NCBI GenBank assembly: GCA_965261395.1
Contig: OZ253462.1
Location: 2,112,001 to 2,176,000, forward strand
Reading direction: 5' to 3'
Source: Candidatus Latescibacterota bacterium
GTDB lineage: Bacteria; Latescibacterota; UBA2968; UBA8231
DNA: 64,000 nt
Shown here: in pieces, positions 635-21,556 of the stretch
How positions within the stretch are numbered: position 1 is the first letter of the stretch
How the letters are laid out: the number at the start of each line of letters is the position of its first letter
Program-made: the position numbers and the translations under genes
Notes under the pieces: model-generated
What the model was told of the DNA's origin: nothing
What the model saw: only the letters and a program-made list of their open reading frames with translations
The model's database searches: none

Positions 635-776
635 GATCCTGTCTCCTCTGCTTTGTAGTTCGGCCAACGCATATTATGTATGCTAGCGAATTCGCGCGCA
701 CTGCTCAAGTCCGCAGGGGGAGCGGATTAAAAACACTGGTCCTAAGTACACGACACCTGACCTGAGTGCGCGTTTT

Positions 777-1301
777 ATGATGTCTCCTTATAAAGTGATC
801 CGCCTGAGCCAGCTCCCCGGTCAAGCCGTGCTCGACAGCGGGACAGTAGGCTTGCTGCCCTTTGCGCCGTTGATGCAGCCGCCAGCCGGTCAGGCCGAGG
901 CAACGTGGTTAGAGCAGTGCGTAGCCCGGGCGGCGGCCGTGCCGCTGGGTCGGGCGGTCAAGGCCGATTTTCTAGCTGGACTGGCGATCTTGAGTGGGTT
1001 GGTATATAATCCGCAGACGATCATGGCCATTGTTTCCAAGGAGCATCTCATGGACCTCATCCGCGAATCCTCGTTTGCCCAGTACCTCGCCGAAAGTGCC
1101 CGTGAGGAAGGCATTGAGCAAGGGATCCAAGAAAGCATCCAAGAAGTGTTGGCTCTGCGCTTTCAGCCGGAGGATATGCACCCGTTGGCCCGCCGCATTG
1201 GGGCCATTGACGATGTGCAGCGACTCAAGCAGTTGTTTCGGGCGGCCATACAGATGCCCAGTCTCGAAGCCTTCAGGCACCTGTTAGACGCCGACGAGTA
1301 G
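777..1301 (+). pseudogene. 5'-truncated Rpn/YhgA-like (PD-(D/E)XK nuclease family) protein, C-terminal half only
   Basis: YKVIRL...GLLPFAPLM...LAILSGLVY...MDLIRESSFAQYLAESAREEGIEQG...LALRF...IDDVQRLKQLFRAAIQMPSLEAF is typical of Rpn C-termini. No nuclease N-terminus upstream. Confidence 0.7.
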
Positions 1302-11099: not shown

Positions 11100-12275
11100 G
11101 GCTTTGGTGCATGAAAACTGTCGGGGCCGTGTTGCCCCTTGTCTGGTGTGTTTTAGACTTCCTTGGTTATCGGATAGGACTCGGGCTTAGCCAAATGCAA
11201 TAGCCGGTTGAGTATGGCACATCCCACTCGTGTTTCGGTTTGTTGGTGGGATAGGGTTCGGGCGTGCAAGGTGTCGCCGAGGCTCTGTTTGTAGCGGCCG
11301 ATCTGGGTTTCGACGAGGGATCGGCGATGATAGCCACTGGTTTTTTTCCAGGTTCGACGGCCCCGGCTACGGATGGTTCGGATCGTCTCATCGCGGGGCA
11401 ACGGCTCCGCGTTGCAGTTGCCATGTTGCTGGATTTTGGCGTCTTTGCGCGGCGGAATGATCGGCCGGATCGGCGGCCCTCGGTCCGGCGCAGCCAACGC
11501 CTCAAACACCTTGCGTTTATCATAGGCTCCATCCCCGCCCACCGCCGCGATGGGGGCCGCGACTTGCTCCAGCAACGGCTCGACCTGCCCGGCATCATCT
11601 GGGCGATTGGCCGTCAACGTCTGGGCGACGATCTCGCCGGTGGCTTCGTCGACCCCAAGGTGCAATTTGCGCCAGGTGCGCCGCTTGCCCCAGCCGTGCT
11701 GACGCACCTTCCACTCGCCTTCGCCATACCCCTTCAACCCCGTCGAATCAACGACCCAATGCCGGGGTTGATCCGTGGGCTGGGTAGGCAACGCTACTGT
11801 CAAGTCAGCCTGACGCCGCGAGAGGGTCGTATGATCCGGCACCCGTATAGCCAAGCCCATCAAGGCTACAATGGAAGCGACAAACCCCTCGGTTTGGCGT
11901 AGCGGCAAGTGATACATAAGCCGCAACGTCAACGCCGTGTGGATGGCTACGTCCGAAAAGGTATATTGCGCCCCCCGTTGGCGCGGCCCTTGATAATACC
12001 ACGCTTCGACCGCTTGGGGGGAAAACCACACCGTCAGGCTACCGCGCTGGGTAAGCCCCGCATCATAATCAGGCCAATTACGCACCCGATACACAACCTT
12101 CGAGCGACGGCGACGGGGCTTGACCGAAGACGGAGCAGACGATACGTTGGACAGGACAGGTTCCTTGGAAGAGAAGGCATAGAGTCTTTTCGCAAAAAAG
12201 TCATGCCCAATCTACTGAGGAGCCTGTCTTTATTCAACCGAGAAACCCAAAAATACCGATCCATGCACCAAAGCC
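11100..12275 (-). mobile_element. IS5 family (IS903 group) insertion sequence, isoform A
   Basis: TIRs GGCTTTGGTGCATG / CATGCACCAAAGCC; 9-bp target duplication CTTCGCAGG at 11091-11099 and 12276-12284. Confidence 0.95.
11153..12094 (-). CDS. IS903-like DDE transposase
   Basis: YRVRNW..Y...L.QRGSLTVW, DSTGLK, RRTWRKLHLGVD, DGAYD, GYHRRSLVET. The position matching the ATG of isoform B is CTG at 12154. Confidence 0.93.
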   Translation of the reverse strand: MYRVRNWPDYDAGLTQRGSLTVWFSPQAVEAWYYQGPRQRGAQYTFSDVAIHTALTLRLMYHLPLRQTEGFVASIVALMGLAIRVPDHTTLSRRQADLTVALPTQPTDQPRHWVVDSTGLKGYGEGEWKVRQHGWGKRRTWRKLHLGVDEATGEIVAQTLTANRPDDAGQVEPLLEQVAAPIAAVGGDGAYDKRKVFEALAAPDRGPPIRPIIPPRKDAKIQQHGNCNAEPLPRDETIRTIRSRGRRTWKKTSGYHRRSLVETQIGRYKQSLGDTLHARTLSHQQTETRVGCAILNRLLHLAKPESYPITKEV

Positions 12276-12372
12276 CTTCGCAGGTGTCACAAAATGATCC
12301 ACCATCTCGCGCGTTGGCATAATCGATTCCAAATATTCGCGTCTTGTCATCGCGGGATCCTTTTCCCTATTC

Positions 12373-13602: not shown

Positions 13603-13828
13603 AGGTATTCACTTTGCGGGTGTTTGTTCACTTTTCTTTGGAAATGGTGCACGCGAGGTGCGTCTAGGGATTCTTGGGCGGTCATTTGCAGATCAATTAG
13701 ATTCACCGAGATACTGAGCTGATTGTTCGGAATAATACGTCCGCTGGGGATGCCGTAAGGTAGCGAAAGGGGCATTGTCCCGCCACGCGAGCATCGGTGC
13801 CATGTTATGCAACGGACGTTTGCCGCGA

Positions 13829-13985
13829 GCGATGGCACCGCCGAGGGCCCCGCCTCAGCCGCAGTTCGAGTGCGCCGCCTGACCTCCCCTGCTCGACCGC
13901 CTTCTGCGCCGGCCGGTACGGTGGGGTGCGCCCTGAATGGCCTCCACAAATAGCAGGTTGCCCTCGATACGGGCCGACCGGCATC
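13829..13985 (+). mobile_element. IS91/ISCR-family fragment, copy 4 (last transposase codons plus start of the oriIS arm)
   Basis: GCGATGGCACCGCCGAGGGCCCCGCCTCAGCCGCAGTTCGAG...CCGCCTTCTGCGCCG matches 8420-8510. Confidence 0.8.
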
Positions 13986-14306
13986 CAAACCCTATTAGGT
14001 GTCAGGGAACAGACGGATTAACTGCGGCAGGGATAGCCCTTGACGGTAGGCTTGGCCCGGCCCTTTCTTTTTCTTAGTCATCCTTTTAGGCCATTTCTTG
14101 GAAATCATCAGTATGATTTCTCCCAGTATTTCAAGGAGTGCTAAGGTCTTGGTAATGACCATAATGCACCTCACTTGTTGCGAGTGCTTGCACAACACTC
14201 TGGTTTAATAGATTCGCCGCTGGATATGATTAGCGGCACGGAGATAAGAATAAAGTATATACTTTACAACAGTTTATACCATATTTGGAGGAAAAACGCA
14301 CAGAAA

Positions 14307-14342
14307 AAGCCCCAAGCCACAATACATTGTGGCTTGGGGCTT
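14307..14342. terminator. Perfect 17-bp stem hairpin
   Basis: AAGCCCCAAGCCACAAT-ac-ATTGTGGCTTGGGGCTT, preceded by an A-run (U-tract on the minus strand). Confidence 0.6.
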
Positions 14343-14582
14343 GAAGGATAGAGCGGATAGAGCTATTTCCTTTTGGGCTTAGATCGGCAATGCCTATCAA
14401 CATGCTCCACCGATCCATCTTTCCTTACTCTAATATGCGTTTTAACATCAACAGGCTTTCCCTTTTTTGCCATAACCCGATCCCCTTTCTTTGGTTAGTG
14501 GCTCAGGAACGTAGATATAATAAATATACCACATCAGACATCGTCAAGTGTCTCAAGCAACAAGATATTGTGGTTTGGGCAT

Positions 14583-14611
14583 TTGACAATGTCCTCAGAA
14601 TTTGCTATGCA
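14583..14611 (+). promoter_or_regulatory. Putative sigma70 promoter for 14670-14894
   Basis: TTGACA-17 bp-TATGCA; AGGAGG RBS at the gene. Confidence 0.4.
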
Positions 14612-14669
14612 CTATGTACACTATTTTGTTCTCATGTCCAGCTATACACCTTAAATCAGGAGGAGCATA

Positions 14670-14894
14670 ATGCCCAATTACATCGTGAATAAAAATAAAC
14701 AGCCCAGCGGGGATAACGAAGTTCACGTATTCCCAAAACCGTCGAACTGCCTAAACCATAACTATCCAGCACCTCATAATCGAGAAGCATTGGGCTACCA
14801 TTCCTCATGTCGTGGAGCGGTTACGGAAGCGAAACGCAGAGGATACAATGCAGACGGTTGCTATTGGTGTGCTAATGAATGTCATACCAGATAA
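14670..14894 (+). CDS. Small Cys/His-rich putative metal-binding protein
   Basis: YIVNKNKQPSGDNEVH...C...LGYHSSC..AV.EAK....ADGCYWC..ECHT; strong RBS; hairpin downstream near 14924-14957. Confidence 0.75.
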   Translation: MPNYIVNKNKQPSGDNEVHVFPKPSNCLNHNYPAPHNREALGYHSSCRGAVTEAKRRGYNADGCYWCANECHTR

Positions 14895-15235
14895 TACCCC
14901 AGTATAAATTTTCATTTTTTCCTTGCCCCAAACTATTGTCTCAGAGTAGCTTGGGGCTGTTTGTGTTCCCTACGGGTTGGGCCACAAAGTATGTAAGTCC
15001 CTTTTTTAAAAGGGAATTATATACGTGAGTGATCAAGGATGGCGTAGGTCTCTGTATAATTGAGACTTGCGCTATTTTTTTAGCTTTGAATGATTATTAC
15101 CCAATAAATAGACACAATCGGGCAAAAGTCAAGAAAATCGGAGCTAGCGGCTGGCCCGTTTTTGACTTGACAGGCGATGAAAATCATCTACTCTTAAAAT
15201 TTAGAACAAGTTAGAATAAACAGAACAGGTAGAAA

Positions 15236-15889
15236 ATGGACACAAGCGCCCCTTACCTGCTACACTCGGTCATTGTCGTCGTTATGGCTGAAGAGCATGA
15301 ACCTACGATGCTCAGTCCTAGGTTTTTGGCCGAAAAAGAGATTGTGCCTAATGACTGGAAAGCGGCTCAGTCAATAACGAACCCCTTTGAATCGGCCGTT
15401 CGGTATGAAAAAGCCATGCTTAAAATGAGTTCATCAAGGTTCGAGGTTGAGGGACTTAGCGATGGCTCTTTTAAGGAAAGCTATGCTGCCCATAGTATAG
15501 TTGCTGACTATGTATCGAAAATGCCCCATACCCCATATCGTAGTCTTGGGCTTAATTGCAGGGTGTTAATAAGAGCAGACAATCCCGAGCAGTGGCTGTC
15601 ACAACGGTTCTTGTGCCCCAATCTATGGAGAAACGGCAATCCCGAGGGGCATATTGAAAAAGCAGATTTTACCGTGCCTATGGATGATGGATTGTCTTGC
15701 GAATTTTCGTTTACCTCGGGCAATTTGAATAATGAACAGAGTGAATCTGAAAAAATCGTTGTTGTCACTGTCAACATTGACCATCCGGGAGCACTAAACA
15801 CCGGCTTAATACGGGAGGCTATTAGGCGATGGCCCAAGCGACAAGAATTGATCCGGGTTACTTTGGACAAGATTTTGAGGAGTTCATAG
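15236..15889 (+). CDS. Hypothetical protein, possibly TIGR04255-related (cassette gene 1)
   Basis: SVIVV....EPTMLSPRFL....IVP..W and MPHTPYRSLGLN motifs. TTGACA at 15167 upstream. Confidence 0.6.
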   Translation: MDTSAPYLLHSVIVVVMAEEHEPTMLSPRFLAEKEIVPNDWKAAQSITNPFESAVRYEKAMLKMSSSRFEVEGLSDGSFKESYAAHSIVADYVSKMPHTPYRSLGLNCRVLIRADNPEQWLSQRFLCPNLWRNGNPEGHIEKADFTVPMDDGLSCEFSFTSGNLNNEQSESEKIVVVTVNIDHPGALNTGLIREAIRRWPKRQELIRVTLDKILRSS

Positions 15890-16392
15890 AACCCACGTCT
15901 TTATCTAGATCTGAGACGATTAGTACGTCTAGGGAGTCCCATTGGCCTAAACCACCTGTCCATACGGACTATCCACAGGGATCGATGCGTATAACCTCAG
16001 TTGTTGCAGAAATTACGAAAAATTGGTTTGATATTGTTATAATTAATCATGTTGATATTATTGTCGATAGGGCTAAGGCTCGCATATTGCGCTTAGAGGA
16101 AAATTGGGACGACGCAGGATGTTCAGCCTATAAAGAAGAAACAATAAAAGCCGCCGCTAAATTTCTCCATCAGTTAGAGGGTTCAAAAGCAATTAAGGTA
16201 CGCATAGCGCCCGCTAGTGAAGGAAGCATAGACCTGCACTGGAAGATGGATAAGTTCGAGCTTTTAATCAATTTTCACCCTGATAACTCGGTTTCTTACT
16301 ACGGGGACGACTACAACGGGAACTTAATCCGGGGGAACTCTTGCCCCAAACCAGAGTTTATTTCGTGTTGGATGAAGCATACTAGTGAATAA
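15829..16392 (+). CDS. Hypothetical protein with LEENWD motif (cassette gene 2); start uncertain
   Basis: S/T/P-rich N-terminus, then LRLEENWDDAG...IAPASEGSIDLHW....ELLINF. Overlaps both neighbours. Confidence 0.65.
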   Translation: MAQATRIDPGYFGQDFEEFIEPTSLSRSETISTSRESHWPKPPVHTDYPQGSMRITSVVAEITKNWFDIVIINHVDIIVDRAKARILRLEENWDDAGCSAYKEETIKAAAKFLHQLEGSKAIKVRIAPASEGSIDLHWKMDKFELLINFHPDNSVSYYGDDYNGNLIRGNSCPKPEFISCWMKHTSE

Positions 16393-16771
16393 GTGGCCCG
16401 TAGAAGAAATCCCGGATGGCGACATGCTATACTATCGCATCCACAAGAGAGTCCTAGCAGAGGCGTCGTCTAACTATTCTGTTAGTGTAACAAAGGACTA
16501 TCTGCCTCCTGCAGTATTCATTTATCAAGGAGGCGATCTATCCGTCGGTTGGGAGAAGCACACAACAGCCAATAAATTATTAAAGCGTGCTAGATCCCCT
16601 AGCGAAACTGGTGTAGTTGAATTTGCGGCTGGACCTGTGCGCGAAGATGGACATACGGTTGTGCATTCTCCTTCCCAATGCAATCGTGCCCATAGCTCTA
16701 TTCGTGGGAATCAGCCCGATGTGCGAGTAACATTAAGTCGCATTGCTAGGTGGAAGATAAATATAAAGTAG
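16385..16771 (+). CDS. Small ADP-ribosyltransferase-fold-like protein (cassette gene 3)
   Basis: LYYR18IH...DLS53VGW...GVVEF...VVHSP...NRAH103SSIRG. Confidence 0.55.
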   Translation: MNKWPVEEIPDGDMLYYRIHKRVLAEASSNYSVSVTKDYLPPAVFIYQGGDLSVGWEKHTTANKLLKRARSPSETGVVEFAAGPVREDGHTVVHSPSQCNRAHSSIRGNQPDVRVTLSRIARWKINIK

Positions 16772-16917
16772 AGTTTTCTTCCCCTCCATCTCCGCCCCGA
16801 GCCTATAGCCCTTAGTCGCTCGGGGATTCTTGTATCCACCGATAGCGTAGGTCTTTGTGAATTAGATATTTGCGCTATTGTTAACCAAAAATTCCCCAAA
16901 GGGAAAGGAGCGTTCAG

Positions 16918-17151
16918 ATGACCGAGGAACTATCTATGTATGATTTTGCTGATTTTTTATCTAAGCAATCTCCCGATAAAAAAGAAGAAAATCTAGTTGA
17001 TTTAATGATCTTAGTAGCTGAACTCCTAAAGAAAGAGAACATTAAAATTATGATACATCCCAAAAGCGATGGCAGCTATGAGCCTCGACTTGAGCATATG
17101 GAGACGCCCTACCCCCCCCCTGTTTCGCTGCGCTTTTTCGGGTATAACTAA
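16918..17151 (+). CDS. Hypothetical protein, 77 aa
   Basis: AAGGAG RBS before the ATG; lies inside the cassette. Confidence 0.5.
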   Translation: MTEELSMYDFADFLSKQSPDKKEENLVDLMILVAELLKKENIKIMIHPKSDGSYEPRLEHMETPYPPPVSLRFFGYN

Positions 17152-17469
17152 GTAAGTAGTAAAGTATATACTTTGCGTTTTTCTCCCTGCGCTACTGTCC
17201 AGTGGCGCATTTTTTGTTCACCTAACACAAGGAGGTGCCTATGCTCAAAAGCTGGGTCATCTTGGAAGTTGTCGGCACGGCGTTGTTGATACTCTATAGA
17301 GGTTGGTCACTCAGGTATATAATTCCCTTTCAAAACTAGGGTTTCGGTATCTCACGCGGCTCAAAGCGTCTGATACCGGGGGCATCTGGCCCTATGAAAA
17401 ACGCTTGACGTCAAGGTACTTTACCCCCCCGCAAAGCGGCCCGATGGGGATTTTAAAAAGGCTTCTAAA

Positions 17470-17840
17470 CTTGAACGCAGAAGTGATGTTGGCAAGTTGG
17501 CACTGAATATCCTAGATCGAGTGAATGCCAGTTTGCAATATCCAAAACGGTTTACTCAGGAAACCTTGAGTCGTCTGGAGAGCTTTAGTTGACCGAGGAA
17601 TGTTCGTGAACTATAATTTGTGGTTGAGCGTTCAGCGTGGCTCGCAAGAAGCTTATCGATGCTGATGACATCGTATTTGATGCGCCAACTTCTGGAACAT
17701 ACCCTTTTGCGTCACTTCCGGAACCACATGACGGGTTATATTATGAACGATTATCTTAAGAGCGTGCGCAAGCAATTGATGCTTCGCGCCCTAGCAATTG
17801 CCAATGGGAATCAGAGCCAGGCGGCAAAATTGTTATACAG
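17470..17840 (+). pseudogene. Sigma54-dependent (NtrC/Fis-type) activator C-terminal remnant
   Basis: LERRSDVGKLALNILDRVN...F*PRNVREL*FVVERSA (degenerate WPGNVRELENVIER), then LRALAIANGNQSQAAKLL Fis-type HTH. Confidence 0.8.
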
Positions 17841-17849
17841 GAGGGTGAA

Positions 17850-18962
17850 ATGGTATTGAAGATTCTGCATACTGCGGATCTGCATTTGGGACTGAAATTT
17901 GCAGGCTATCCCGATGTTCAAAACGAACTCACTGAGGCGAGGTTTGAGGTGCTGGAAGGCTTGGTCGACCGAGCCAACTCAGAACTGTGTGACCTTTTCA
18001 TTTTGGCTGGTGACGTTTTTGATCGGGTAACAGTTGCCAAACAAGATGTTAGAAGGTGTGTTAATATCTTGAATGAATGCAATGGCCTGGTGATCTTGCT
18101 GCCAGGCAACCACGACTATACGTCCAGTCAAAGTGCCTTATGGGACTACGTTGTTGAACATGGTGGTGATCGGCTGCGTGTATTGAAGAAAAATGAGCCC
18201 GTTCGCTTGCATCACTATGATTTGGATGTTGTGCTCTATCCCGGTCCTTGCACTGCCAAGCATTCTTCTGAGAATGCTATCGATTGGGTCAAAACGATCC
18301 ATAAGGATCAGAGCACCAAATACCATATCGGAATTGCTCACGGGAATATTGAGGGACTTGGTCTTGATGAACGGCGGAATTACTACCCGATGACCCGTGC
18401 AGAACTCCTTGAATGCGAAGTCGATCTGTGGCTGCTTGGTCACGTCCACGTTCCATTCCCTGCTAAATCCGGTTCCAGCGAACGGATATATTATTCTGGT
18501 ACGCCTGAACCGGATGGGTTCGATTGCCGCCATTGTGGATGCGCCTGGATTATTGAGCTTGATAACAATAAGGCAATCAATGCACGGCAGATTTTCCCAG
18601 GAAAGTTTCGGTTTACACACGATGAGTTTGACGTGAGAACGTCGGCGGAGATAGAGCGATTGATGAAATATTACACAGAGACGGACCGGACAAATCTGCT
18701 GGTAAAATTGAAGCTGACCGGACGATTGCCCAGAGAAACTTATGCAGAATTGGATTCTGTGAAATCTGTTATAAGGGAGCATGTCTTTTATCTTCAGTGG
18801 GATGGCAGCGATGTGGCTATAGAGATTACTCCCGATGTCATTGACCGGGAGTTTACTCAGGACTCTTTTCCCCACAGGTTTTTAACGGAGCTTGCTCGCA
18901 GCGACGAGGACGTAGAGGCACTACAGATCGGTTATGAGATGATTCAGGAGGTGAAAGAATGA
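17850..18962 (+). CDS. Mre11/SbcD-like (YhaO-type) metallophosphoesterase nuclease
   Basis: HTADLHLG, AGDVFD, PGNHD, AHG, LGHVH, YSGTPE. Confidence 0.92.
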   Translation: MVLKILHTADLHLGLKFAGYPDVQNELTEARFEVLEGLVDRANSELCDLFILAGDVFDRVTVAKQDVRRCVNILNECNGLVILLPGNHDYTSSQSALWDYVVEHGGDRLRVLKKNEPVRLHHYDLDVVLYPGPCTAKHSSENAIDWVKTIHKDQSTKYHIGIAHGNIEGLGLDERRNYYPMTRAELLECEVDLWLLGHVHVPFPAKSGSSERIYYSGTPEPDGFDCRHCGCAWIIELDNNKAINARQIFPGKFRFTHDEFDVRTSAEIERLMKYYTETDRTNLLVKLKLTGRLPRETYAELDSVKSVIREHVFYLQWDGSDVAIEITPDVIDREFTQDSFPHRFLTELARSDEDVEALQIGYEMIQEVKE

Positions 18963-21373
18963 TACTCAAAAGCATAGCTCTCACTCCTTTTGGCGGGCTG
19001 ACGGATGCACTGCTCGATTTTAAGCCTGGACTCAATGTCATTCATGGACCGAATGAAGCAGGAAAATCAACGATTTTTAATGCGCTTCAACGGGTACTTT
19101 TTACACCAGCGCGTCTAACCCCTTTCGCGTTTAAAAGGGAGATGGAATCCTTCTTGCCGTTAGAAGGCGGGGATACCATCGCCGTGTCTCTATGTCTGAA
19201 TCTAAACGGAGATACGTATGCTCTCAAGAGAACCTGGGGCGCTACAAAGTCTGCGGAATTTACGTTGCCAGGAGGTTCCCTTATTACAGACGAAGATGCG
19301 ATCCAAAAACGTCTGATATCGCTGCTGCCAGCTAAAGAAGGGACGTTCAAAACAGTGCTGATGACGTACCAATCTGGACTGCCCAAAACGATTGAGGAAT
19401 TGGGGGCAGAACCTATTCAGACCCTTAGTACAATCCTCCGAAGGGCTGTTTTCGAGACGGATGGTGTCTCAGTAGATCAGTTCAAGCAGAATATCGAATC
19501 CGAATACACTACATACTACAGTCGGTGGGATCGTGAACGCGGATGCCCTGAAAGTGATCAGCGTTATGAAAGAGGTGTCGGCAAGATCCTCCAGGCCTAT
19601 TACGATCTGGAAGATAAACAGATGGCTTTGAAGGAAGCCGGGGACTACGAGGCTGAACTAGACGAAATCAACGGTGAGATCAATACTTGTATTGACACGA
19701 TTGAAACCATCGAAGCCTATATCGAAGAAAATGAGAGGGTCGTAGAGGATGCACGCCAGCGCCAGTCATTGAATGACAGACTGGATGCCATTGACGTCCG
19801 TATGGAAAGACTCCAAAAAGACAACAGAGATTGGCCTGTCGCTGAAAGCGAAATGGACCGGATTGAGGCATTGTTGCCTGGGCTCAAGAAAAAAGAGAAC
19901 GCGCTGGCTTTGGAACAAGAAATGGCCATAAAAAAGGAAGTGAGAAATCAATTACGAAGACAATTCGAGCAGGTTGAGAAGAGGCGGCAAGAACTTGAGG
20001 ATGCGGAGCAGATGGCTCAACAAACTCCGAAACTCACAGACAATGATCTGGAAGAGTTGCGAAAAACAGGCGCGAAACTCAACGAGCTTAAGGCAAGCGT
20101 AACTGCGAGCAAACTCTCTGTCCGTTTGCTGGCGAAAAATGCCCTTTCCTTTTTTGTTCAAGAAGGCCTTTCTGAACCACAGTCCCAAGAAATAGCATCT
20201 GGGGGTCATATCTCTTACGATGAAGGAAGCAGAGTAAAGATTAACCATCAGGACTGGGAGATAGACATTTCATCTGGTGAGAGCAATTTTGATGTACTTG
20301 TGCAGGAGTTTGAGGAAACCAATCTGCATCTCACCGCTCTGCTTGAACAACACGATGTTGAGAATCTAAACGAAGCGATTGGCGTCAACAAGGACTATAC
20401 GGCGGGTCTTCAAAGCGTCAATTCTGCAAAGAACAATCTGATAGCGGCGTTGGCTGGAGAGACCTATGAAGAACTCAAAGCGAAAGTTGTAGAGATTGGT
20501 ACAACGGAAGATTCCCGTGATTTAGATAGCATTCTGGAAGATCTGCATAATGTGAGGGATGAGATAAGTGGACATAAACGCTCCTTAGAACAGAACCAGG
20601 AACGAATCCAGGAACTGATTGATACCTACGGCAGTTCGAACCAATTGCTATTGAAACTTGCCGAAGAGGTAAAGAACGAGAAGGAAACACAGGAAAAGAT
20701 CGAAAATCTTGTCCCGCTACCCGATGGTGTTGAAGATATTGATTCTTTCATCGAAATGTACGAAGAGAAGCAGGCCGAGTTGATGGAAACGAATGATAGT
20801 AAGAGGGACCTGTTAATTCAGCGTGCGAATGTAGAGAAAAACCAACCAGAATTATCTGCCGAAGAATTGAACAACCTGCTTGTAGAATTGACCGAAAATT
20901 TCAAGAGAATAAATAAACGAGGCGAAGCCGTCGCACGGATAAAAGACCTGACAGATCGGCTGATGGAGGAGATGGATTCAAATACCTATAAAGGACTGAC
21001 AGGCGATCTGGAGCGATATGTGGTGTCGATGACAGAGAACCGGTATGACCGAATCGATATGGAGGAGAGTCTTCCTCGGGGATTTGTTCGACAAGATGGT
21101 GTGACATTACCATACGATCTGTTATCCGCCGGGACGAGGGATGTTCTGGCCCTATCGCTTCGCCTTGCTATGGCCAACCACTTTTTGATGGATGCAAATG
21201 GTATGCTTATGCTCGACGACCCGCTTGTGGATCTGGATCCTCGGCGACAGGAAAAGGCGGCTGAGGCCTTTAGAGATTTCGCAGAACAGAAGCAGGTGAT
21301 TATCTTTACATGCCACCCTCACCATGCGGAACTTCTGGGTGGTAACCGGATCGAGCTTAAAGAGAATAGTTGA
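18959..21373 (+). CDS. Rad50/SbcC-like (YhaN-type) coiled-coil ATPase
   Basis: Walker A GPNEAGKST, long coiled coil, signature LSAGTRD, Walker B LMLDDP, FTCH. ATGA overlap with the nuclease gene. Confidence 0.92.
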   Translation: MILKSIALTPFGGLTDALLDFKPGLNVIHGPNEAGKSTIFNALQRVLFTPARLTPFAFKREMESFLPLEGGDTIAVSLCLNLNGDTYALKRTWGATKSAEFTLPGGSLITDEDAIQKRLISLLPAKEGTFKTVLMTYQSGLPKTIEELGAEPIQTLSTILRRAVFETDGVSVDQFKQNIESEYTTYYSRWDRERGCPESDQRYERGVGKILQAYYDLEDKQMALKEAGDYEAELDEINGEINTCIDTIETIEAYIEENERVVEDARQRQSLNDRLDAIDVRMERLQKDNRDWPVAESEMDRIEALLPGLKKKENALALEQEMAIKKEVRNQLRRQFEQVEKRRQELEDAEQMAQQTPKLTDNDLEELRKTGAKLNELKASVTASKLSVRLLAKNALSFFVQEGLSEPQSQEIASGGHISYDEGSRVKINHQDWEIDISSGESNFDVLVQEFEETNLHLTALLEQHDVENLNEAIGVNKDYTAGLQSVNSAKNNLIAALAGETYEELKAKVVEIGTTEDSRDLDSILEDLHNVRDEISGHKRSLEQNQERIQELIDTYGSSNQLLLKLAEEVKNEKETQEKIENLVPLPDGVEDIDSFIEMYEEKQAELMETNDSKRDLLIQRANVEKNQPELSAEELNNLLVELTENFKRINKRGEAVARIKDLTDRLMEEMDSNTYKGLTGDLERYVVSMTENRYDRIDMEESLPRGFVRQDGVTLPYDLLSAGTRDVLALSLRLAMANHFLMDANGMLMLDDPLVDLDPRRQEKAAEAFRDFAEQKQVIIFTCHPHHAELLGGNRIELKENS

Positions 21374-21556
21374 CGTTTCTATCACAAGAGAGCCCGAGAT
21401 GGACAGAGGACACGACAAAACCGTGCTTGTGTCCTTCAAAGTTATCGAAGGAGGAGATCGAAATGAGTTTTGGGTCCTCTGTTTACGGACGAGGCCGGCG
21501 ACGGTGAATGGATGGCGAATGGACGTTTAACGGCAGGGCAAAGCGCCCGTTGCCAC

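Follow-up and report, generated by a model that had tools for sequence, protein, structure and literature searches.

A three-gene operon encoding a predicted minimal ADP-ribosyltransferase-fold protein in a genomic island of a Candidatus Latescibacterota bacterium

A three-gene operon and its catalogue status

Here we describe a three-gene operon from a Candidatus Latescibacterota bacterium (assembly GCA_965261395.1), lying within a 64,000-nt stretch of contig OZ253462.1 (positions 2,112,001 to 2,176,000 of the forward strand), which we call the window and whose numbering is used throughout. Gene 1 (15236-15889) encodes 217 amino acids, gene 2 (15829-16392, ATG start) encodes 187 and gene 3 (16385-16771, GTG start) encodes 128; all three are on the plus strand and are defined by their open reading frames (ORFs) and translations. 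These coordinates are exactly those of an initial annotation of this DNA, which had proposed a tripartite toxin or defence system ending in an ADP-ribosyltransferase (ART)-like toxin. There is an overlap of 61 nt between the ORFs of genes 1 and 2, and of 8 nt between those of genes 2 and 3, with a GGGAGG box readable 10 nt 5' of the gene 2 ATG. The operon had also been called AT-rich, and this holds: GC content is 0.44 over positions 14001-21000, against about 0.55-0.60 in the flanking window DNA.

Genes 1 and 3 have no match in Pfam, NCBIfam, PADLOC or PHROGs, and gene 2 has none in Pfam, NCBIfam or PHROGs; its PADLOC matches are limited to part of PDC-M32A and some weak cyclase rows. A full match in these collections is therefore found for 0/3 components, despite the size of the gene 3 family (995 clusters; see below). 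Profiles of the three proteins gave nothing credible against PDB sequences, the best row, ESAT-6 (E 0.009), falling within gene 2's variable region.

Gene 3, a member of a large family, has a predicted ART fold

Three residues of gene 3 had been singled out as candidates for an ART-like triad: Arg18, Ser53 and His103, in LYYR, DLSV and NRAH contexts, respectively. All are present as described, and all are invariant across the 12 close homologues (12/12) obtained from 19 candidates in a word-indexed search. A profile search of 1.84 billion representative sequences extends the family to 995 representative clusters at E<=1e-3 (532 at E<=1e-10), spanning bacteria and archaea, with members that are almost all 110-150 aa long. 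To form a family alignment, 79 of 150 listed representatives were picked for their near-full-length matches and joined with the window's own gene 3 (n=80); within it, S53, W56 and H103 are invariant, and R18, F45, Y59, R86, H94, P96 and N100 are each kept in at least 90% of sequences. Pfam matched none of these sequences (0/80), and the 80-sequence profile matched none of the PDB chain sequences at E<=1.

An AlphaFold (AF2) model of gene 3, calculated from the 12-sequence alignment, reached a pLDDT of 84.8 and a pTM of 0.79 (the other four models were lower, at 42-75), and was compared to known structures by Foldseek against the PDB and by VIA-align, which is independent of Foldseek, against 48,161 chains. 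The top 50 rows from VIA-align are almost wholly ART-fold proteins, a count that includes CC0527, BC2332, AvrPphF, protein 6b and IcmQ, which we take to be such. The list is headed by KptA (Z 8.0, rmsd 3.2, 97 aligned) and mouse Tpt1 (Z 7.1), with CC0527 (Z 6.1), NarE (Z 6.0), AvrPphF ORF2 (Z 5.6), Tse2 (Z 5.2, over 102 residues), two DarT entries (Z 5.0), Scabin (Z 4.8) and TreX (Z 4.6) following; its lower rows hold the pertussis, diphtheria and heat-labile toxins, the SidE/SdeA mART domains, PARP domains, the RES toxin and Arr. In Foldseek, too, KptA/Tpt1 chains come first (E 0.026, probability 0.99, TM 0.49), with no row at E<=0.001; nor did a BFVD fold search give any at that threshold, its weak rows including phage RNA 2'-phosphotransferases. 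Because the VIA-align list is so uniform, and despite its middling Z-scores, we conclude that gene 3, as modelled, has the split beta-sheet ART/NAD-binding fold that had been anticipated for it.

The catalytic residues of ARTs sit on strands beta-1, beta-2 and beta-5, and are of the H-Y-E, R-S-E or H-H-h type. In the gene 3 model, DSSP assigns R18 to the first strand (residues 14-20), S53 to the second (51-56), and H103 to the start of the fifth (103-107). We suggest that these residues form a putative R-S-H active site: Arg in beta-1, Ser in beta-2, and His where beta-5 begins.

Gene 2 is a conserved neighbour and predicted binding partner of gene 3

Gene 2 had been read as an antitoxin to gene 3, with a disordered, S/T/P-rich N-terminus and an NWD domain. 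Conservation is confined to a C-terminal domain: it occupies about residues 75-187 (roughly 110 residues), carries the motifs WDDAG, SIDLHWK, ELLINF and YYGDD, and is the only part common to all 13 homologues (126-241 aa) found among 34 candidates. The S/T/P-rich N-terminus is the variable part of the protein, in length as well as sequence. Pfam and NCBIfam scans revealed no recognisable DNA-binding domain in gene 2.

Taking one genome per species, a search from the 12-sequence gene 3 alignment led to 28 loci with a gene 3 relative, drawn from at least ten phylum-level groups. These include Latescibacterota (the closest, at 54-55% identity), Gemmatimonadota, Promethearchaeota, Thermoplasmata, Deltaproteobacteria, Acidobacteriota and Planctomycetota, with Cytophagales, Flavobacterium and Leptospirales amongst the further hosts. 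At 24 of these loci (24/28) the gene 2 profile finds an ORF whose end meets the start of the gene 3 relative; of the other four, one ends at a contig end (L022) and three (L019, L026 and L030) have an unrecognised, co-directional ORF in the gene 2 position. Adjacent, co-directional small genes with coupled translation are an arrangement familiar from type II toxin-antitoxin pairs; it is repeated at these 24 loci, and from their 8-nt overlap in the window we read genes 2 and 3 as translationally coupled. The two also occur as a natural fusion, in a 370-aa protein (P0127) that combines a gene 2-type domain (residues ~135-225) with a gene 3-type domain (254-367), and has an extra N-terminal region of ~130 residues.

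Prediction of a complex between gene 2 residues 70-187 and gene 3, with custom alignments as input, scored 0.80 (median of three runs), compared to 0.07 for the best of three controls; the 0.80 mark is reached by 58/80 solved complexes and by 2/110 mismatched pairs. The three runs have at least 85% of their contacts in common, with a partner pLDDT of at least 87, and the predicted interface on gene 2 falls on its most conserved motifs (WDDAG 93-97, 125-139, 144-148 and YYGD 156-160). Taken together, these models support binding of gene 3 by the C-terminal domain of gene 2; of the earlier reading, what is supported is gene 2 as a conserved neighbour and predicted binder, with antitoxin action a candidate role.

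Gene 1 is an accessory first gene, in a slot shared with TIGR04255 proteins

For gene 1, only 6 homologues were found among 148 candidates. Its model (pLDDT 82.4) shows a duplicated alpha/beta fold that is TBP-like: Foldseek lists many TBP chains, as well as AdoMetDC, at E 1e-5 to 1e-4, with a TM of only about 0.37, and VIA-align gives a Z of at most 8.0 in a list that, unlike that for gene 3, is heterogeneous and includes McsB-like chains. The initial annotation had offered two candidate identities, SecB-like or TIGR04255. No SecB-like chain appears in the Foldseek or VIA-align lists, an absence that does not exclude the fold. The TIGR04255 suggestion fares better by position, as set out below; gene 1 itself is unmatched by the TIGR04255 model at E<=1, which finds nothing at E<=10 in the whole source genome, and is unmatched by hhalign.

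As gene 1 relatives are found in 0/28 of the gene 3 loci, a strict three-gene unit is not universal. Across 41 related genomes, one of them the source genome, the profile of gene 3 hits 17, that of gene 2 hits 18 and that of gene 1 hits 8. The conserved core is thus the gene 2-gene 3 pair, and gene 1 is an accessory present at a minority of loci; the gene order that had been expected to recur does so for the pair, and not for the full trio.

Where gene 1 relatives do occur they head a large-middle-small triad, without exception (11/11 loci: the window, L002 and L031-L039). Three such triads belong to the source genome, namely the one described here, its paralogue at 6.36 Mb (L002; 223, 219 and 134 aa) and a third at 0.745 Mb, which is one of L031-L039. 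Eight of the triads, L031-L038, are divergent: their third protein (141-161 aa) falls in a family sister to that of gene 3 (hhalign 95.5%, E 1.5e-8), with the Ser and His motifs in alignment; the middle proteins are of 235-306 aa and, by hhalign, have no detected relation to gene 2, while two of them weakly match the same part of PDC-M32A.

Two observations concern the surroundings of these triads. One divergent type (228, about 300 and 150 aa; L034, at G000:C1:741500-749500, together with L033 and L035-L037) has a conserved 646-aa ORF after it in five genomes, with no Pfam or PADLOC match for the L033 copy; this ORF may be a fourth component, or merely a syntenic neighbour. Adjoining the paralogous triad at 6.36 Mb is a leucine-rich-repeat protein (L002 9-950) with GPIPPELGNLSSLQ-type repeats.

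A first gene of another kind is also seen. At ten of the 28 loci gene 2 is immediately preceded by an ORF of 217-248 aa that reads the same way: in two of these, from Promethearchaeota (L027 and L028), it encodes a true TIGR04255 protein (6e-30 and 3e-28), five form a cluster of their own, and three are unclassified. TIGR04255 proteins are present in 45/168 genomes of the phylum, and 7 of 30 fetched TIGR04255 loci (L050, L055 and L067-L071) have, two genes downstream, a gene 3-like ORF that an HMM detects, with several others of the 30 displaying the large-middle-small layout without HMM matches. At L050, from the same genus as the window, the TIGR04255 gene is followed by a close homologue of gene 2 (1e-68) and then by a shortened homologue of gene 3 (647-985, minus strand) that stops after the third strand, without the His motif; this copy has probably decayed. 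Of 12 further small proteins from triads that were aligned with gene 3, 11 keep both Ser and His, and the L050 copy is the one exception.

A search of the ESM Atlas returned, as the second neighbour of gene 1, a cluster labelled 'putative TIGR04255 family protein' (0.95); as the recognition value for gene 1 was 2042, below the mark of 2300, we treat this as a lead only. Gene 1 may be a very divergent member of TIGR04255, or else an analogue that fills the same slot.

The presence of a first gene goes along with the size of gene 2, whose products measure 154-306 aa in triads, against 111-181 aa where the pair stands alone (L009 being ambiguous). As triad proteins are long and pair-only ones short, the first gene would seem to accompany the N-terminal extension of gene 2.

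The operon sits in a low-GC island, within a repeat-bounded cassette

A 13-kb query around the operon was compared with 30 genomes of the same genus. The flanks (up to ~13645, and from ~21552) are about 0.6 kb apart in six of them (G002, G009, G011, G013, G020 and G144) and separated by 1.3-2.7 kb in a further three (G022, G010 and G021), such that at least nine same-genus genomes lack this island at the site; among the matches listed, the only same-genus DNA match to the 7.9-kb interior is in G146 (69%, in the region of genes 2 and 3). Since the flanks close up without this interior, we place the operon in a low-GC island (13646-21551, 7.9 kb, GC 0.44 against about 0.59 outside) at a variable site. 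The distribution of gene 3 within the genus is similarly patchy, with relatives in 11/24 genomes. Pattern scans and tblastn searches of viral contigs, phage records and plasmids turned up nothing related to gene 2 or gene 3, also when a more central member of the family served as query.

Within the island, the cassette bounded by inverted repeats that had been noted earlier is confirmed: its 33-nt arms, at 15004-15036 and 17303-17335, are 91% complementary, and enclose genes 1-3 together with a 77-aa ORF (16918-17151, plus strand), which is followed by a terminator-like hairpin (17188-17209) and has no family match in the Pfam, NCBIfam, PADLOC or PHROGs scans. A genome scan found just two copies of the repeat arm in the 6.55-Mb genome, both at the module; as these are the sole copies, we reject the idea that the repeat is the end of a multi-copy mobile element. 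A second, outer inverted repeat (14236-14270 and 17156-17190; 35 nt, 80% complementary) brackets the cassette, and just outside the left arm of the 33-nt repeat lies a 74-aa, Cys-/His-rich ORF (14670-14894) that matches the phage family phrog_4298 (5.9e-18), to which no function is assigned.

A 42-nt direct repeat, D1, stands upstream of gene 1 (15038-15079, plus strand), where it contains a GTCTC...GAGAC palindrome around TATAAT, and again upstream of the 77-aa ORF (16841-16882, plus strand; 79% identity to the first copy). From its placement, D1 may be a shared operator or promoter. A TTGACA promoter had also been proposed for the operon; the hexamer can be read at 15167-15172 (plus strand), with no -10 hexamer 16-18 nt beyond it, and the site is omitted from a promoter scan that itself shows no enrichment (9 sites, versus 7.0 +/- 2.6 expected).

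Downstream of the cassette, a 79-aa ORF (17620-17859) precedes two large genes on the plus strand that overlap by 4 nt and form an SbcCD-like pair: a Metallophos phosphoesterase (17850-18962, 370 aa; PF00149, 5e-14) and an SMC/AAA ATPase (18959-21373, 804 aa; SMC_N, AAA_23 and AAA_27), for which the best PADLOC match is LmuB (1.6e-22). We think that these may constitute a separate defence pair. The description of the island as rich in nuclease genes reduces to this phosphoesterase and ATPase. Elsewhere, an AbiU/AIPR gene (L017, 6713-8569; PADLOC 1.8e-27, Pfam AIPR 1.2e-39) lies 1.3 kb downstream of a Cytophagales triad; the remainder of the ten large neighbours sampled at other loci comprise one with a GAP1-N2 domain and others that are housekeeping-like or unassigned.

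Comparison with known ART modules

ART toxin modules are already known, among them DarTG, CmdTAC and Tse2-Tsi2, and each of these resembles the operon in part. DarTG shares with it an ART-fold toxin with a cognate antitoxin, anti-phage relevance, the occurrence of natural fusions, and a structural match between DarT and gene 3 (the Z of 5.0 given above). DarG, however, is a macrodomain hydrolase, and Pfam finds no macro domain in gene 2. DarT is also larger than gene 3, with a different catalytic motif.

The closest structural matches to gene 3, by both VIA-align (Z 8.0 and 7.1) and the top Foldseek rows, are KptA and Tpt1. However, gene 3 aligns with the C-lobe alone (residues 73-180 of the KptA chain, and 95-216 of mouse Tpt1); the N-terminal RNA-binding lobe, and with it the two-lobe architecture of these enzymes, is missing from the 128-aa protein. 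There is no detected sequence similarity between the two, and gene 3 alone is paired with a predicted binding partner and carried on islands. In PMC9503650, KptA is described as an ART without the classical catalytic Glu, and both KptA and RES as ARTs that use a phosphate acceptor; KptA-like enzymes, according to PMC11833690, ADP-ribosylate phosphate ends of nucleic acids.

Tse2-Tsi2, from the T6SS (type VI secretion system) of Pseudomonas aeruginosa, likewise combines a small ART-like toxin (Z 5.2 to gene 3) with a dedicated binding protein. For Tse2, to which the initial annotation attributed a proposed Arg-Ser-His triad, PMC6099711 reports only NAD-dependent ART activity, with Tsi2 occluding its active site; the predicted gene 2 interface, in contrast, leaves the putative catalytic residues of gene 3 free. 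Tse2 has no sequence homology to gene 3 (PDB profile search, E<=1), the partner domains are unrelated, and no T6SS context is seen among the annotated ORFs around the operon.

The three-gene logic is most reminiscent of CmdTAC and the toxin-antitoxin-chaperone systems, in which, according to PMC11618068 and 10.1101/2024.02.24.581848, an ART toxin and its antitoxin are joined by a third protein that acts on an extension of the antitoxin; a correction to that work (PMC11445053) cautions that toxicity of the toxin alone is not to be assumed. Here, too, gene 1 accompanies a long gene 2 extension. However, that extension is N-terminal, where that of CmdTAC is C-terminal, and the gene 1 model has a TBP-like duplicated fold, with no SecB listed. 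No homology of the components to those of CmdTAC was detected with PADLOC-DB 2.0.0, a release in which the presence of CmdTAC models is not confirmed; it matched neither gene 1 nor gene 3, and gene 2 only through PDC-M32A and the weak cyclase rows.

Two catalogue entries touch the operon without covering it. TIGR04255 (NCBIfam 'sporadTIGR04255') has gene 1's position at the head of related triads and a similar size, whereas gene 1 does not reach the 30-bit score of that model. PDC-M32A of PADLOC is matched by the gene 2 C-terminal domain over positions 252-334 of 375 (E 2e-7), that is, over 83/375 positions, and middle proteins of other triads also match it partially; its partner, PDC-M32B, was not found in the PADLOC scan, and PDC-M32 is itself, in PMC12429752, a hypothetical candidate system only.

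A proposed mechanism, and its alternatives

Synthesising these findings, we propose that the operon is composed of an ART-fold effector (gene 3), a binder that holds it inactive (gene 2), and a first protein (gene 1, or TIGR04255 elsewhere) that acts through the gene 2 extension; we place this proposal a little to the favourable side of even. Gene 3, as a minimal ART core, is probably the effector, one that would use NAD+ to modify a cellular target or would simply consume it. As His replaces Glu, and the closest fold is that of KptA/Tpt1, we would guess, by analogy, at a nucleic acid or phosphate acceptor, or at NAD+ cleavage. Gene 2 would most likely bind gene 3 through its C-terminal domain, as in the predicted complex, and keep it in check as an antitoxin/immunity protein. 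Gene 1 is most likely an add-on layer that would stabilise, sense or release through the N-terminal extension of gene 2, in a chaperone-like manner suggested by CmdTAC; in related triads, a TIGR04255 protein would take its place. The analysis shows the fold of gene 3, the conservation of its residues, the linkage of the genes and their natural fusion, a binding prediction backed by controls, the setting in an island and a patchy distribution; that gene 3 is catalytic and toxic, that gene 2 neutralises it, what gene 1 does and whether phage defence is involved are matters that we infer.

Several points weigh against this proposal. Its support is entirely computational, and the fold scores for gene 3 are middling (Z<=8, Foldseek E>=0.026). 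A His (H103) stands where R-S-E enzymes carry their catalytic Glu, and the R-S-H site is placed by strand order, not by residue-level superposition, which leaves it putative. The predicted interface on gene 3 comprises residues 20-31, 41-49, 69-71 and 109-115; as R18, S53 and H103 all lie outside it, occlusion of the active site by gene 2 is not indicated. With regard to gene 1, hhalign returned a probability of 0.1-0.2% against TIGR04255, that is, no detectable sequence similarity, and gave no support for a relation to the first-gene cluster of L016-L024, both comparisons having aligned the same short stretch (PYRSLGLNC vs RIGLRYIN). The correlation between gene 2 length and triads is confounded by relatedness, since most pair-only loci come from one phylum. 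Finally, a known defence gene was met in just 1/10 of the large neighbours sampled at other loci (the AbiU/AIPR gene of L017), and PADLOC names no system at the operon, in line with the earlier remark that the triad was not a recognised one; only gene 2 is matched, and that partially, by PDC-M32A.

The strongest of the alternatives, albeit one that we still regard as unlikely, is that of a plain addiction-type toxin-antitoxin module, which would stabilise the island and take no part in phage defence. Such a module would have just this architecture, with a small binder encoded upstream and a small enzyme downstream, in overlapping frames; moreover, many genomes carry the pair without gene 1, its neighbours elsewhere are mostly housekeeping genes (8/10 sampled), and it has no relatives in the phage or plasmid collections. 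Set against this are the SbcCD/LmuB-like pair adjoining the window copy in a variable-site island, the AbiU gene near the L017 triad, and the combination of an exchangeable first gene and a patchy distribution that is typical of immune modules, none of which is decisive.

We consider it improbable that gene 3 is instead a non-toxic, NAD+-dependent enzyme of nucleic-acid end-processing or repair, akin to KptA/Tpt1, with gene 2 as its substrate adaptor and not its inhibitor. This would sit well with KptA/Tpt1 as the best structural matches, with a third catalytic position that is not Glu, with the precedent of phosphate-acceptor ARTs (KptA and RES, PMC9503650), and with a gene 2 interface that is predicted to avoid the putative catalytic residues. 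However, gene 3 matches the KptA C-lobe only, without the RNA-binding lobe; Pfam shows no ligase, 2H or macro-domain gene nearby among the window ORFs; and a patchy, multi-copy, island-borne distribution is ill-suited to housekeeping repair.

Still more doubtful, in our estimation, is that gene 1 binds DNA and autoregulates the operon, in place of acting as a chaperone or sensor. The idea draws on the TBP-like gene 1 model (Foldseek E 1e-4 to 1e-5, to many TBP chains), on the operator-like palindromic repeat before both gene 1 and the 77-aa ORF, and on gene 2 having no recognisable DNA-binding domain of its own; against it, the TM is about 0.37, with AdoMetDC, McsB and arginine-kinase domains scoring as well as TBP, and the pairing of gene 1 with a long gene 2 N-terminus is left unexplained. 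That the ORFs are chance or unrelated genes, with no functional unit, can draw on no RNA sequencing run being listed that covers the stretch, and is effectively refuted by conserved homologues for all three proteins, confident fold models for genes 1 and 3, and a gene order that recurs across phyla.

Returning to the proposal of an effector held by gene 2 and governed by a first protein, what is new here is a mini-ART family bearing an R-S-H signature and a partner domain, neither of them catalogued, together with the connection to TIGR04255. This is the first functional context found for TIGR04255, a named but uncharacterised family; a full-text search found no paper that mentions TIGR04255 or CHP04255, or a defence system of TBP-like and ART components, with the proviso that supplementary tables of defence-discovery papers might list such. 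The partner domain is now defined, and the R-S-H site on a 128-residue ART core offers a testable catalytic hypothesis.

We also advance, as a speculation with rather poor prospects, that TIGR04255 proteins and their TBP-like analogues (gene 1) are the sensors/regulators of a three-gene immune system that is widespread in bacteria and archaea but uncatalogued, in which a minimal R-S-H ART would ADP-ribosylate nucleic-acid ends or destroy NAD+, and the inhibitor would be a new WDxxG/YYGDD domain in common with PDC-M32A. If the operon does turn out to be an immune system, the defence catalogue would gain a compact ART effector along with a new sensor family.

Other features of the region

Two further features lie upstream of the cassette. 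Positions 14307-14342 form a perfect 17-bp hairpin, terminator-like on the minus strand. Beyond the left edge of the island, an IS5-like transposase element (11100-12280, with a 313-aa ORF at 11153-12094) has at least six copies elsewhere in the genome that are 100% identical, and further copies at 80-88% identity in the source genome (82%) and in the congener G022.

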